Source: an uncultured Actinomycetota bacterium (GTDB taxonomy: Bacteria; Actinomycetota; Actinomycetes; Mycobacteriales; QHCD01). From it: a stretch of 64,000 nucleotides of DNA. The DNA lies in contig CAWINQ010000005.1 in the NCBI GenBank assembly GCA_963837545.1, positions 49,525 to 113,524 of the forward strand, given 5' to 3'. The position numbers and the translations under genes are program-made. Positions within the stretch are counted from its first letter, which is position 1. Each line of letters opens with the position of its first letter. A model generated the notes under the pieces. That model did no database searches and had not been told where the DNA came from. It saw only the letters and a program-made list of their open reading frames with translations. Below are positions 5,389-9,672 of the stretch, piece after piece.

Positions 5389-6129
5389 CTAGCGCGGCAC
5401 GCCGTCCACGATGGTGTCGACCTTCTCGTCGTAGAACGCGACAAGGCCCGCGATGGGCAGCAGCTGACGGGTCGGGAAGGCGTAGGACCACGCCAGGTCC
5501 GGATGGACGGTGTCACCGACCCGGACCGACCAGTAGTCGCTCGTCGTTCCCTTGTACGGGCACTCGGTGACCGTGTCGGTCGCGACGAGGACCCCGAAGT
5601 CGATGTCGGTCCGGTCGACGTAGTGGCGGGTCGGCAACCCCGTCTCGAACACCATGACCGGCGAGTTCGACTCGGCCAGCACGGTGCCTTCCAGTTCGAT
5701 CCGGACGGATCTGGTCGACCGCAGGGCGTCGACCCGGGTGTAGGGGTTACGCGGGTGCACGAAGACCTGTTCGTCCTCCTCGTACCAGCTGTCCAGCGCT
5801 CGCCATTCGAACCGCACCGTGCCCGTCAGCCCGTCGATGTCGGAGTCGACGAGGAGTCTCGCGGCGTCCGGGCGCAGTGTGTCGCCTACCCGGAGATCGT
5901 GCAGTTGCACCGGACCGCGTCGGGTCTGCTGTGTTCGCTGCCGGGCGACGAGCAGGTCGGTGCGCACGTCGTCGACAGGAACGTAGTACTGCGGATAAGC
6001 CTGCGATTCCCAGACGTAGCGGGCACGGGTCGTATCCAGAACTTTCCGGCCGGACAGGAACGCCCGGATCCGGCGCGGGACCGGCTCGACGTGGTTGACC
6101 GGGACGATGACCTGCGGATAGCCGCCCAT
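5389..6129 (-). CDS. DUF427 domain protein (two tandem DUF427 repeats).
   Basis: YYVP / CPYKG-type motifs occur twice (QYYVPVDDV ... ECPYKGTTSDYW). Confidence 0.6.
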   Translation of the reverse strand: MGGYPQVIVPVNHVEPVPRRIRAFLSGRKVLDTTRARYVWESQAYPQYYVPVDDVRTDLLVARQRTQQTRRGPVQLHDLRVGDTLRPDAARLLVDSDIDGLTGTVRFEWRALDSWYEEDEQVFVHPRNPYTRVDALRSTRSVRIELEGTVLAESNSPVMVFETGLPTRHYVDRTDIDFGVLVATDTVTECPYKGTTSDYWSVRVGDTVHPDLAWSYAFPTRQLLPIAGLVAFYDEKVDTIVDGVPR

Positions 6130-6204: not shown

Positions 6205-6816
6205 GTGTCATTCGTGTCTCGTGGTTTCACCGGGCGTCGACGCGCGGGAGAAGGCCCGCCCGGTAGGTTACCGCCAGGGCAGTACGACGTGGGCGACGGT
6301 TTCCCCGTGCTGTCCGCCGGCCCGACCCCGCACACGTCGACGGACCGCTGGGATTTGCGCGTGCAGGGCCAGATCGACGACGTACGCCGATGGAGTTGGG
6401 ACGAGTTCCGTGCGCTGCCGCGGGAGTCGATGACGGTCGACATCCACTGCGTGACGAGCTGGTCGAAGTTCGGCACCCGCTGGGAAGGGGTGTCGGTCGA
6501 CGCCCTGCTCGGCGACGTGGAGACGGCCGCCGAATTCGTCACCGCCTTCAGCGATGGCGGCTACACGACCAACCTGCCGCTCGCCGACCTGACCGACGGC
6601 CAGGCATGGGTGGTCGACACCTACGACGGTGCGCCGCTGCCGCCCGAGCACGGCGGGCCGGCCCGGCTCCTCGTGCCACACCTCTATTTCTGGAAGTCCG
6701 CCAAGTGGATACGCGGCCTCGCCCTCACGCTGACCGACGAGCCGGGCTTCTGGGAGACCTTCGGCTACCACAACTACGGTGACCCGTGGCAGGAACAGCG
6801 GTACGCCGGCGACTGA
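6205..6816 (+). CDS. Sulfite-oxidase-family molybdopterin-binding oxidoreductase, Moco domain only (YuiH-like).
   Basis: GTG at 6205 preceded by AGGGGG. It is in frame with the 3' third of artefactual ORF 4795..6816. Motifs: DVHCVTSWSK, EHGGPARLLVPHLYFWKSAKW. Confidence 0.7.
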   Translation: MSFVSRGFTGRRRAGEGPPGRLPPGQYDVGDGFPVLSAGPTPHTSTDRWDLRVQGQIDDVRRWSWDEFRALPRESMTVDIHCVTSWSKFGTRWEGVSVDALLGDVETAAEFVTAFSDGGYTTNLPLADLTDGQAWVVDTYDGAPLPPEHGGPARLLVPHLYFWKSAKWIRGLALTLTDEPGFWETFGYHNYGDPWQEQRYAGD

Positions 6817-7532
6817 GCTGGCAGCGCGCCGAGGTGCTCGGCGTACGACGCGAGACCCCGCGCGCCTGCCGGCTCAGCCTGCGACCCCCGGACTGGCACG
6901 GGCACCGGCCCGGCCAGCACGTCGACGTACGCCTGACCGCCCCCGACGGATACACGGCACAGCGCAGCTACTCCATCGCCTCCCCGCCGGAGGCGTCCGG
7001 GATCGACCTGGTCGTCGAACGACTGGACGACGGCGAGGTGTCGCCGTACCTCACCGACGAGCTGCGCGACGGCGACCTCCTCGAGCTCCGGGGACCGATC
7101 GGCGGCTTCTTCGTCTGGCCGGCCGACCCCGACGGCCCGGTGCAGCTGATCGCCGGCGGCTCCGGTGTGGTGCCCTTCCTCGCGATGCTCGGCCACCATC
7201 GCGCGTCGGCGAGCACGGTGCCGGTGCGCCTGCTCTACTCGGCGCGCACCGACGACGACATCATCGGTCGCGCGGAGCTCGAGGACCCGGGAGGCGCCGC
7301 CGAAGTGAGCGTGACGCTGACCCGCGACGCTCCCGACGGCTGGACCGGGCCGACCGGGCGGGTCGACGCGGGGCTCCTGGCCGAACGCACCGTCACGGCG
7401 GCGCAGCGACCGCAGGTGTTGGTGTGCGGCCCGACCGGCTTCGTCGAGAGCGTGGCCCGCGGGCTCGTCGAGCTCGGCCACGATCCCGGCCGGATCAAGA
7501 CCGAACGCTTCGGAGCGACGGGAGGACCGTGA
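6786..7532 (+). CDS. FNR-like FAD/NAD(P)-binding oxidoreductase (ferredoxin-reductase-type flavoprotein, no Fe-S domain).
   Basis: RSYSIAS FAD motif and GGSGVVPF NAD motif. Overlaps the upstream gene by about 31 nt. The start could instead be GTG at about 6827. Confidence 0.7.
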   Translation: MAGTAVRRRLSWQRAEVLGVRRETPRACRLSLRPPDWHGHRPGQHVDVRLTAPDGYTAQRSYSIASPPEASGIDLVVERLDDGEVSPYLTDELRDGDLLELRGPIGGFFVWPADPDGPVQLIAGGSGVVPFLAMLGHHRASASTVPVRLLYSARTDDDIIGRAELEDPGGAAEVSVTLTRDAPDGWTGPTGRVDAGLLAERTVTAAQRPQVLVCGPTGFVESVARGLVELGHDPGRIKTERFGATGGP

Positions 7533-7825
7533 TGACCGACCCCGACGGACCGGACGACCGGAGACTGGACGCCAACGCGGCGGCCGGGCCGCTCGCCGAG
7601 CTGTTCACGGTGGATCTGACGGTCGCGGTCGCGACCTGCGCCAGCTGTGGCAGCAGCGGCCCGCTGGCCGCCCACGACCTCTACGCCGACGCTCCGGCAC
7701 TCGTCGTACGCTGCCCGCACTGCTCTGGCGTCGTACTCCGTTACGCCAGTACCGACGGCACGATCCGGCTCGACCTGACCGGGACCCGGCTGCTCACCGT
7801 CACCGTTCCGACCGACACCCCCTAG
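7532..7825 (+). CDS. Small Cys-rich protein with rubredoxin-like CxxCG...CPxCSG knuckles (DUF6510-like).
   Basis: ATG overlaps the upstream TGA (gtgATGAcc). Motifs CASCGSSG and CPHCSG. Confidence 0.6.
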   Translation: MTDPDGPDDRRLDANAAAGPLAELFTVDLTVAVATCASCGSSGPLAAHDLYADAPALVVRCPHCSGVVLRYASTDGTIRLDLTGTRLLTVTVPTDTP

Positions 7826-7834
7826 AGGACCGTC

Positions 7835-8128
7835 ATGCCCGAGATCTGCACGCACCTGCCTCCCGTGGACAACGTCGCGCCGAGCGGCAACGGCTGCGTC
7901 GAATGCCTGGCGACCGGCGGCCGGTGGGTCCATCTGCGTCGGTGCGTCGACTGCGGTCACATCGGCTGCTGCGACAGCTCCCCGAACCGGCACGCCACCG
8001 CGCACGTCCGCGCCGAGGACCACCCGCTGATCCAGTCCTTCGAGCCGCAGGAGGAGTGGTACTACTGCTATGCCGACGACCTGATGTTCACCCGGGAAGG
8101 GGCGGCACCCGGTCCGTCCCACACCTGA
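7835..8128 (+). CDS. UBP-type zinc-finger (zf-UBP) domain protein.
   Basis: 97 aa. C/H-rich motifs: CTHL, CVEC, RRCVDCGHIGCCDSSPNRHATAH. Starts 9 nt after the previous gene. Confidence 0.65.
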   Translation: MPEICTHLPPVDNVAPSGNGCVECLATGGRWVHLRRCVDCGHIGCCDSSPNRHATAHVRAEDHPLIQSFEPQEEWYYCYADDLMFTREGAAPGPSHT

Positions 8129-8150: not shown

Positions 8151-9110
8151 TCACCAGCTCAGCAGGGCGGCCAGCTCGGCGTTGCGCTGTGCGAACGCCG
8201 TCCAGGCGGCCGGCGTCGTGGCCAGCCTCCGGCGCGCGGCGCGTTCGGAGCACGCCGCCTGCCGCCAGACGCAGAGTCGCCCGGCCCGGACCTCACAGTG
8301 CAGCAGCACCCCGTCGGCCCAGCCGTAGAGGTCGGCGTCCTCCGTTTCGGCCGTCGTCGCTCGCTGGACGCCCGAGATCCAGCCGACCGCCTCGATCTCG
8401 GCCTGCAGCCGGGCCGCGAGCTCGAAGGAGAGCGCCCCGGCGGCGGCGTCCCGCCGTCGTCCGAGCTCGGCCAGCAGGCCGGCCACGGCCTCGCCGTCCC
8501 GGTCGAATACCGCCGCGGCCCGCCGGACGAGGGTCTGCCGGCACCCGGCGTCGACGCCCCGGATCCGGGCCAGGTCGCGACCGGACCCGCGCACGTCCGC
8601 GCCGGCGTACCCCAGCGGGTGCACCCGCTCGACCGCGGACACGGCCAGCCGCGCCTTCTGCCCCCCGAGGTAGGGCCCGAAGACCCACGTCCCGGTCTCC
8701 GGTCGCGACTCGTGGACCACGGTCAGTCCCGGGGACCGCGGCCCGCCGTCGAGCCGGATGAAGACCGGCACCTCGGCACCACCGGCGGTGCGGTTCCACG
8801 GTGACAGCCGCCGTTCGAGCAGGTTGCGCTCGAGCCAGGCCGCCTCGTGTTCAGACGCGCATTCGATCGCCTCCAGCCGGGCGATCCGGGACACCATCCG
8901 GGACAGGTGTCCCCGGTCGCGCAGGTCGCCCCAGTAGGAGGCCACCCGCCGCCTGAGGTTCGTGGCGCGCCCGACGTAGAGGACATCGCCGCGCCCGTCG
9001 CGGAAGCGGTAGACGCCCGGCGCCAGGGGAAGCCGCGGGATGCTCGCCTGCGGCGCCGGGAACGGTCGACGGTCCTCCCGGAGGGGCATCGGTCCATGAT
9101 GGGCCCTCAC
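8151..9110 (-). CDS. GIY-YIG nuclease-domain protein (UvrC N-terminal / Cho-like).
   Basis: GVYRFRDGRGDVLYVGRATNLRRRVASY plus the conserved E/N of the GIY-YIG core (ASEHEAAWLERNLLERRLSPWNR). Confidence 0.7.
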   Translation of the reverse strand: MRAHHGPMPLREDRRPFPAPQASIPRLPLAPGVYRFRDGRGDVLYVGRATNLRRRVASYWGDLRDRGHLSRMVSRIARLEAIECASEHEAAWLERNLLERRLSPWNRTAGGAEVPVFIRLDGGPRSPGLTVVHESRPETGTWVFGPYLGGQKARLAVSAVERVHPLGYAGADVRGSGRDLARIRGVDAGCRQTLVRRAAAVFDRDGEAVAGLLAELGRRRDAAAGALSFELAARLQAEIEAVGWISGVQRATTAETEDADLYGWADGVLLHCEVRAGRLCVWRQAACSERAARRRLATTPAAWTAFAQRNAELAALLSW

Positions 9111-9517
9111 CGGAGCGCGGCGACAGCCTCGACCTCGACGAGTTGGTCCCGGTACCCCAGGGCCGCGACCCCGAGCAACGTGCTCGGGACGTCGTGACCG
9201 CCGAAGTGCCGGGCGACGACGTCCCAGGCGGCGACCAGATCGTCCTGGCTCGAGCTGGCGACGTAGACCGTGGTCTTCACCACGTCCGTCAGCCCGGCGC
9301 CGGCAGCGGCCAAGGCGGTATGCAGGTTGGCCATCACCTGCTCGGCCTGCCCGGCGACGTCGCCGACAGCGACGGTGTCCCCGGCGGTGTCGAGCGGACA
9401 GGCGCCCGCCGTGAACACCAGCCGGGTGACACCGTGCGCGACGGCGGCATACGCATACGGGGCACGGTCGGCAAGTTCGGCGGTCCGGATCAGTTGCACA
9501 GGGCTCGAGGCGCTCAC
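9107..9517 (-). CDS. RidA/YjgF family protein.
   Basis: YjgF-like core (AYAAVAHGVTRLVFTAGACPLD ... TTVYVASS). The start is uncertain: GTG at 9517, or the ORF may extend to 9613. Overlaps the GIY-YIG start by 4 nt. Confidence 0.6.
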   Translation of the reverse strand: MSASSPVQLIRTAELADRAPYAYAAVAHGVTRLVFTAGACPLDTAGDTVAVGDVAGQAEQVMANLHTALAAAGAGLTDVVKTTVYVASSSQDDLVAAWDVVARHFGGHDVPSTLLGVAALGYRDQLVEVEAVAALR

Positions 9518-9672
9518 GCCGACGAGCCTAGGGCTCGACCCGCGCGGCCACGGCTCCGGCGCCCCTTCTCTGGCCTCCCTTCCACTATGCGCAGCCGCGC
9601 GGTCTGAGATCAAGACTGTTTCTGCGTCCGGACAAGCCGCACAATTGGCTCGGGATTCGAGAGGACGGGTGC

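Follow-up and report, generated by a model that had tools for sequence, protein, structure and literature searches.

A conserved Moco-FNR gene pair and its DUF6510 partner in Actinomycetota: a candidate cytoplasmic NAD(P)H-dependent molybdenum oxidoreductase

Group 3 of the sulfite oxidase (SUOX) family comprises uncharacterised single-subunit cytoplasmic SUOX-fold enzymes of environmental bacteria and archaea, and these single-domain cytoplasmic members are the sole branch of the family without a known reaction (2020 review, PMC7759655). A protein of this type is encoded in a stretch of 64,000 nucleotides from an uncultured Actinomycetota bacterium (contig CAWINQ010000005.1; the whole stretch is called the window here), the DNA of which is about 70% GC and of actinobacterial type. 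Its gene is the first of four between positions 6205 and 8128, which specify, in this order, a molybdenum cofactor (Moco) protein, an FNR-type flavoprotein, a small DUF6510 protein and a UBP-type zinc finger (zf-UBP) protein. The traits common to group 3 and to this Moco protein are a single PF00174 domain of about 200 aa, the lack of signal peptide, heme and dimerisation domain, and the presence of a Cys predicted to bind Mo. By these described traits, not by phylogeny, the Moco protein most likely belongs to group 3. The review describes the group as 'single subunit', whereas here an FNR partner is encoded by an overlapping or fused gene and a DUF6510 partner is found in three phyla. The branch is thus not truly single-subunit, having a dedicated NAD(P)H flavoprotein partner that is sometimes part of the same polypeptide.

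Among characterised enzymes, eukaryotic nitrate reductase likewise combines a SUOX-fold Moco domain with a cytochrome b5 reductase/FNR-type NAD(P)H/FAD module, and the same Moco-then-FAD order recurs in the bacterial fusion proteins described below. It differs in its heme b5 and dimerisation domains, neither of which is present here, and in that the genes of the window are separate and overlapping and encode a YedY-like Cys loop; its match to the Moco domain here is weak (E 0.002-0.003). The mARC/cytochrome b5/cytochrome b5 reductase and YcbX-CysJ systems, which reduce N-oxygenated compounds, have the same outline, from NAD(P)H through an FNR-family flavoprotein to a small Cys-ligated Moco protein. 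Their Moco proteins, however, are of the MOSC fold and are served by a heme b5 or 2Fe-2S mediator, in contrast to the PF00174 protein described here, which is accompanied by no such centre. The MsrPQ (YedYZ) system provides the closest solved Moco domain, YedY, with the Cys-loop motif CVxxWS in common; MsrP, in contrast, is exported by Tat to the periplasm, where the membrane heme-b protein MsrQ supplies its electrons, while the partner here is a soluble flavoprotein and no MsrQ is present. The initial annotation had likened the cluster to a cytoplasmic version of MsrPQ. The cytoplasmic location holds, but the likeness is looser than that to eukaryotic nitrate reductase or mARC, the best solved relative of the FNR protein being NADH-cytochrome b5 reductase. 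Public databases already annotate each of the families, and the group has a recognised orphan status. The three-gene architecture, the heme-free Moco-FNR fusions and the DUF6510 partnership were not described in the open-access papers searched; in agreement with the initial annotation, no characterised function was found there either, and PMC7759655 lists such enzymes as uncharacterised.

The genes and their junctions in the window are as follows.

6205-6816, plus strand: Moco gene (gene 1), 203 aa, GTG start behind GGGAGGGGG; PF00174 Oxidored_molyb, E 2.4e-34
6786-6816, plus strand: Moco/FNR overlap of 31 nt, FNR in the -1 frame relative to Moco, read from the sequence
6786-7532, plus strand: FNR gene (gene 2), 248 aa; PF00970 and PF00175
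7530-7534, plus strand: FNR/DUF6510 junction TGATG, read from the sequence
7532-7825, plus strand: DUF6510 gene (gene 3), 97 aa; PF20120, E 1.1e-29
7826-7834, plus strand: DUF6510/zf-UBP gap of 9 nt, with a GAGGA ribosome-binding site inside
7835-8128, plus strand: zf-UBP gene (gene 4), 97 aa; PF02148, E 1.4e-12

The co-orientation of the four genes, the 31-nt overlap, the TGATG and the 9-nt gap, all noted at the outset, were confirmed from the sequence. The four domain assignments and the cytoplasmic location proposed with them were borne out by the Pfam matches and by the lack of a hydrophobic N-terminus in the Moco protein (maximum Kyte-Doolittle(15) value of 0.17 in the first 50 residues). 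No hydrophobic segment of the signal-peptide or membrane type was found in any of the four proteins. The start codon of FNR is formed on the Pro-Trp codons of the conserved C-terminal motif GDPW of the Moco protein.

An alignment of DUF6510 was scanned against one genome per species (GTDB), which gave 80 loci with the window excluded, and neighbours were located by tblastn with the window proteins. The loci belong mostly to Actinomycetota (Pseudonocardiales, Geodermatophilales, Georgenia, Cellulomonas, Arthrobacter, Nocardioides), with a few from Chloroflexota, and those nearest to the window come from Pseudonocardiales and from Actinomycetota metagenome-assembled genomes (MAGs). It was observed that, first, Moco, FNR and DUF6510 genes follow each other in the same order and on the same strand in 58 of the 80 loci, one further locus being cut by a contig end. 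Secondly, a Moco gene lies within 6 kb of DUF6510 in 78 loci, and FNR adjoins the Moco gene in 68. Ten loci (Amycolatopsis, Pseudonocardia) have the Moco gene followed directly by DUF6510 and no FNR gene, as the called genes confirm in A. bartoniae; in nine loci, from Geodermatophilus, DUF6510 is a few kb away from the FNR-Moco pair; and in two it stands alone. DUF6510 follows the Moco subunit more closely than the flavoprotein. Thirdly, the junctions themselves are conserved. The 31-nt Moco/FNR overlap, with the start at the homologous position, is found in 59 of 67 loci (window included; ATG in 34, GTG in 25), and in 44 of 55 the FNR stop and the DUF6510 start share 1 or 4 nt. An arrangement of this kind is far beyond chance. 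The functional coupling of all four genes had been proposed, with conservation of the neighbourhood across genomes as its check; it stands for Moco, FNR and DUF6510, which are co-conserved across many soil bacteria, and fails for zf-UBP, so that the four families are not conserved together.

Beyond lineage-specific genes, no other universal neighbour family was found in the 80 loci, and no systematic link to msrA/msrB, YeeE, Grx, SulP or DUF427. A DUF5996-like open reading frame lies behind DUF6510 in five of them (e.g. locus L008, 6310-7248). DUF427 (PF04248) adjoins the Moco-FNR pair in the window, as tandem domains, and in the same arrangement at locus L001. It is also found downstream of the pair on an E. 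coli plasmid (locus L083, 9142-9423) and is absent from the other 79 DUF6510 loci; a functional link of DUF427 to Moco-FNR may exist, though a loose one.

The Moco protein matches PF00174 with 118.8 bits against a cut-off of 24, over profile positions 2-169 of 169. This is its sole Pfam domain, and it therefore carries no heme and no dimerisation domain. The subunit is 47-84% identical across phyla, and an alignment of 12 homologs from three phyla (A4) has two invariant stretches, HGGPxRLxVPHLYFWKSAKW and the C-terminal GFWE..GYH..G(D/N)PW..(Q/E)RY. The public gene call on the contig (P0124, 175 aa) starts 28 codons downstream of 6205 and skips 6205-6288; because the N-terminus SRGFxGR...RLPPGQ is conserved across phyla in A4, the GTG at 6205 is the supported start. 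Cys82, in the motif DIHCVTSWS, is invariant in A4 and aligns with the Cys-containing stretch of E. coli YedY (rCVEAWS), whose Cys we take to be the Mo ligand of YedY. Cys is the Mo ligand in SUOX-fold proteins (PMC11194511), and Cys82 is the predicted Mo ligand of the Moco subunit. Also invariant in A4 is Tyr188, which aligns with Tyr322 of chicken sulfite oxidase.

These features bear on the idea that the protein binds pterin without catalysis, in the manner of PruR, and that the cluster is a sensing module. Small single-domain SUOX-fold signalling proteins do exist, but PruR proteins are secreted, have Trp in place of the Mo-ligand Cys and have a truncated hairpin (PMC11194511). The Cys is invariant in the present family, the hairpin motif is of full length, and the protein, located in the cytoplasm, is joined to an NAD(P)H flavoprotein by fusion or coupling. 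We consider a PruR-like role highly improbable.

The affiliation of the Moco protein within the sulfite oxidase family was examined with NCBIfam models. Its best similarity was to MsrP (NF003767), with 46.6 bits against a cut-off of 207; SoxC scored 27.9 (cut-off 420) and SorT 21.4 (cut-off 570). The traits of canonical group 2 enzymes are missing, as there is no dimerisation domain and the loop reads CVTSWS, not CAGNRR; those of MsrP/YedY (group 1) are missing as well, given the low equivalog score, the lack of a Tat-type N-terminus and the lack of an MsrQ-like gene. E. coli YedY is the closest solved relative (E 5e-9, over short stretches only). More than 8000 related Moco protein clusters were counted, a lower bound. 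Stand-alone Moco copies, with neither FNR nor DUF6510 nearby, were noted at L059 (1475-2080, minus strand), L087 (4821-5540) and L090 (4001-4600); such copies include a second paralog in an Actinomycetota MAG and others on S. meliloti pSymB and on a Streptomyces plasmid.

The FNR protein matches PF00970 (46.9 bits) and PF00175 (51.6 bits), both over the cut-off, and has no Fe-S or heme domain in Pfam. The motifs RSYSIAS (RxYS), GGSGVVP (GGxGxxP) and VCGP (CGP) can be read in its sequence. The best solved relative is the NADH-cytochrome b5 reductase 2eix (E 1.6e-21), followed by flavohemoglobin, BenC and MMO reductase, and the nitrate reductase FAD fragments 1cnf and 5yly are also among its PDB matches. 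In NCBIfam the best similarities, all under the cut-off, are to the reductase components BenC, Hmp, PaaE and MmoC. Every named relative is a donor module that oxidises NAD(P)H.

The Moco+FNR pair also occurs outside the DUF6510 loci. Moco relatives were found in 315 records of a plasmid collection, many of them from Sinorhizobium, Acinetobacter, Klebsiella and Pseudomonas, in which NCBI annotates an overlapping pair of 'sulfite oxidase-like oxidoreductase' and 'ferredoxin reductase'. In Alpha- and Gammaproteobacteria the pair is kept with an overlap of 8 nt, and many plasmids from clinical Enterobacterales, Acinetobacter and Pseudomonas carry an identical pair. At L083 (NZ_CP026204.1, 25201-39806), part of an E. 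coli pKPC plasmid, it stands beside a Tn3-family transposase, and its neighbours are grxC, DUF427, SulP and genes for a thioredoxin-like and a universal stress protein (Usp). One version of the pair moves with a Tn3-family transposon found in the carbapenemase plasmids of these clinical bacteria. No other Cys4 mini-protein was found at L083, the only proteobacterial locus inspected in detail. DUF6510 itself was found in 11 plasmid records (Streptomyces, Nonomuraea, Arthrobacter and the gemmatimonadete Gemmatirosa), none of them proteobacterial, mostly 1-1.5 kb downstream of the Moco gene.

Fusions were searched with a concatenated Moco+FNR query, and a fusion was counted only if it was in frame and its junction motifs were intact. 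At least 14 protein clusters are genuine in-frame Moco-FNR fusions, with the motifs intact on both sides (junction, for example, ...GDPWREQRY-R-SVDW..ATV...), the Moco part first and then the FAD module, and no other redox domain. One of them, P0408 from a Trebonia MAG, is identical in the NCBI MAG and in an independent Logan contig. DUF6510 was absent from beside the fused gene at all three fused loci examined. Because the two genes overlap by a conserved 31 nt and form a single polypeptide in some lineages, Moco and FNR are one functional unit and the universal core of the system.

About 30 of 46 apparent Moco-FNR fusions turned out to be frameshift artefacts, in which the Moco C-terminus is replaced by an alternative-frame peptide, and the same is true of P0418, the sole apparent Moco-FNR-DUF6510 triple fusion. 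In the frameshifted calls (within P0391-P0503) the end of the Moco protein is translated in the FNR frame, as the peptide LLG..R.PQLRR. These calls probably stem from assembly indel errors and would mislead surveys of domain architecture. Programmed -1 frameshifting in the 31-nt overlap was considered and rejected, as there is no slippery heptamer and the frameshift points of the database 'fusions' are scattered.

On balance, with slightly more confidence than doubt, we favour the reading that the operon encodes a molybdenum oxidoreductase of the cytoplasm that depends on NAD(P)H and works in the reductive direction with direct FAD-to-Mo transfer. The FNR/cytochrome-b5-reductase-like flavoprotein would take a hydride from NAD(P)H onto its FAD, and the FAD would pass electrons, without a heme or Fe-S domain, to a Mo-molybdopterin centre held by Cys82. 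This centre would then, most likely, remove an oxygen atom from a substrate of the S-oxide, N-oxide or N-hydroxy type, and the enzyme would be a repair or detoxification reductase. We infer catalytic direction, substrate and direct transfer alike. The reductive direction is suggested because the relatives of FNR are donors, because the Cys loop is of the YedY/MsrP type (CVxxWS) and because redox-stress genes neighbour the pair in four contexts, namely msrB (L084), msrA/msrB/GST/Rrf2 (L085), OsmC/AhpD-like/peroxiredoxin (L088) and grxC with a thioredoxin-like gene (L083).

Several points weigh against this reading. The redox-stress neighbours amount to anecdotal evidence from 4 loci and were unseen in the 80 actinobacterial loci. 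We know of no characterised flavoprotein-fed SUOX-fold or MOSC reductase that lacks a one-electron carrier in between: the mediator is heme b5 for nitrate reductase and mARC, heme b in MsrQ and a 2Fe-2S cluster in YcbX, so that direct FAD-to-Mo transfer would be unusual. The translational coupling of DUF6510 to the FNR gene (44/55 loci), and its position in Amycolatopsis as the only conserved partner of the Moco gene, would fit a donor role for DUF6510. Finally, the sulfite oxidase Tyr322 equivalent is invariant, the sulfur-anion transporters SulP and YeeE flank the pair in two contexts (L083, L085), and Gordonia growing on sulfonates, which release sulfite, induces a gene annotated 'sulfite oxidase-like oxidoreductase', a likeness by annotation only.

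These last three observations leave room for an oxidative, sulfite-related role, in which a cytoplasmic sulfite or sulfur-oxyanion dehydrogenase would pass electrons from Moco through the flavoprotein to NAD(P)+. In its favour, the protein has the sulfite oxidase family fold, and passing electrons from sulfite on to NAD(P)+ is downhill in thermodynamic terms. On the other hand, the SoxC and SorT scores are far under their cut-offs, the Cys loop is not the CAGNRR of sulfite oxidase with its substrate-binding Arg, and the dimerisation domain is lacking. Furthermore, FNR modules of such type normally oxidise NAD(P)H, and sulfur-metabolism genes are absent from the window and from the 80 actinobacterial loci. 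The oxidative direction is improbable on this evidence. With only two or three soluble proteins of small size and NAD(P)H to combine, the system lends itself to reconstitution, which could give a large orphan family its function and could show whether a flavin feeds a SUOX-type Mo centre without heme.

The DUF6510 protein of the window scores 102.5 bits for PF20120 (cut-off 26.4) and contains the two knuckles CASCG and CPHCSG. Over 146 diverse members (A2), C36, C39, C61 and C64 are invariant, as are D13 and N15 in a D13-G-N15 motif. The family comprises 1237 clusters at 50% identity, almost all of them stand-alone proteins, and no second domain was found in its longer members. The initial annotation had compared the knuckles with rubredoxin-type metal sites; both knuckles are present, but rubredoxin identity was rejected by profile, Pfam and fold tests (hhalign probability against rubredoxin profiles, 2.9%; AF2 model with pLDDT 88.8). 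Similarity to zinc ribbons is weak, the Pfam CSL zinc finger giving a non-significant E of 0.071, and DUF6510 was unmentioned in the open-access papers searched. From its sequence, DUF6510 is a putative metal-binding accessory protein with four cysteines, restricted in the samples examined to Actinomycetota, Chloroflexota and Gemmatimonadota.

It was originally proposed that electrons run from NAD(P)H over the flavoprotein and the small Cys protein to Moco. In such a relay FNR would reduce an iron-loaded Cys4 site of DUF6510, which would give single electrons to Moco as cytochrome b5 does. Four invariant Cys in two knuckles would suit this role, as would the 1-4 nt overlap with the FNR stop and the Moco-DUF6510 pairs without FNR in Amycolatopsis and Pseudonocardia, where DUF6510 is the sole conserved candidate donor. 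A one-electron mediator is, to our knowledge, present in all characterised flavoprotein-fed Moco reductases, and FNR here resembles cytochrome-b5 reductase, which Cbr1 is too. A precedent is Kti11/Dph3, a small Cys4 'zinc ribbon' that acts in a rubredoxin-like manner downstream of the reductase Cbr1 and is recycled by it (PMC6356722). Kti11/Dph3 differs, however, in that it shows no significant sequence or fold similarity to DUF6510, and its acceptor is a radical-SAM enzyme rather than a Moco protein. Moreover, proteobacterial Moco+FNR pairs lack DUF6510 (and L083 any other Cys4 mini-protein), the three fused loci lack it beside the fused gene, the rubredoxin profiles do not match, and the DUF6510 gene of Geodermatophilus stands apart from the FNR-Moco pair. 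Since proteobacterial pairs and in-frame fusions exist without DUF6510 or another redox centre, the small Cys protein is not an obligatory relay; of the proposed chain, the coupling of Moco, FNR and the Cys protein by synteny stands. We regard the relay as unlikely. Under the favoured direct FAD-to-Mo transfer, DUF6510 would not be needed for the core electron path; its probable docking site is the Moco subunit, where it would serve structure or maturation, or else offer electrons a second, optional entry.

That gene 4 encodes a UBP-type zinc finger was substantiated by its PF02148 score (48.1 bits, cut-off 22.7) and its invariant Cys/His columns (A6). Its membership in a four-gene redox system was not. 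zf-UBP is near the module in three of the 80 DUF6510 loci (L001, adjacent and a close relative; L015, nearby; L018, upstream) and missing from 77, and in Gemmatirosa it lies 1.9 kb from the module on the opposite strand. Conversely, in a zf-UBP-centred sample of the 80 closest metagenomic loci (L095-L174), Moco, FNR or DUF6510 was found at none. The most frequent neighbours there are thioredoxin-reductase-like Pyr_redox_2 flavoproteins fused to cNMP or receiver domains (about 24 of 80), cNMP-histidine kinases (19) and DUF5996 (11). At L091 and L094, zf-UBP lies directly upstream of the fused Moco-FNR gene with a 4-nt overlap. Such repeated juxtaposition looks like more than chance, judged by a rough expectation rather than a formal test. 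We read zf-UBP as a small, mobile zinc protein that has come to lie next to NAD(P)H flavoproteins several times; it would be a passenger, or an auxiliary on occasion, and not part of the core. At the window locus, the 9-nt gap and its own ribosome-binding site indicate that it is probably co-transcribed with the module. Eukaryotic zf-UBP domains bind a free Gly-Gly C-terminus; recognition of such a tail of FNR by zf-UBP was rejected here, as FNR tails vary and are uncorrelated with the presence of zf-UBP.

A more far-reaching scheme would make DUF6510 a new class of Cys4 iron carrier that replaces cytochrome b5 in a prokaryotic heme-free counterpart of the nitrate reductase/mARC chain. The flavin would reduce the SUOX-fold Mo directly in the fused and proteobacterial forms, a step not known to have been described in this family, and zf-UBP would be a second zinc/thiol auxiliary of NAD(P)H flavoproteins. 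We hold this scheme to be doubtful.

The operon of the fused-gene clade (L091, 335-6368; L094, 1416-6356) contains a receiver-domain thioredoxin-reductase-like flavoprotein, a histidine kinase, zf-UBP and the Moco-FNR fusion, with a 4-nt overlap at every junction, which suggests a dedicated sensory or regulatory unit. On the Deinococcus plasmid NZ_CP092191.1 (145057-145302, H115) a zf-UBP match falls inside a gene annotated as a cation:proton antiporter and may represent a fusion. In the window, a Na+/H+ exchanger gene (PF00999, 3500-4741, minus strand) is located 3 kb upstream of zf-UBP.

The cluster in the window is flanked by two genes.

5389-6129, minus strand: tandem DUF427 protein, divergent, 75 nt upstream of the cluster
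8151-9110, minus strand: GIY-YIG/UvrC-like protein, on the other side of the cluster

Both lie on the opposite strand, so that the four genes form a self-contained co-directional block. Sequence scans found no consensus promoter, terminator or Rfam element/riboswitch around the cluster. The GIY-YIG gene, which converges on the cluster, encodes a 319-aa protein that resembles the N-terminal part of UvrC, the rest of UvrC being absent, and it overlaps by 4 nt with a RidA-family gene (9107-9613, minus strand).

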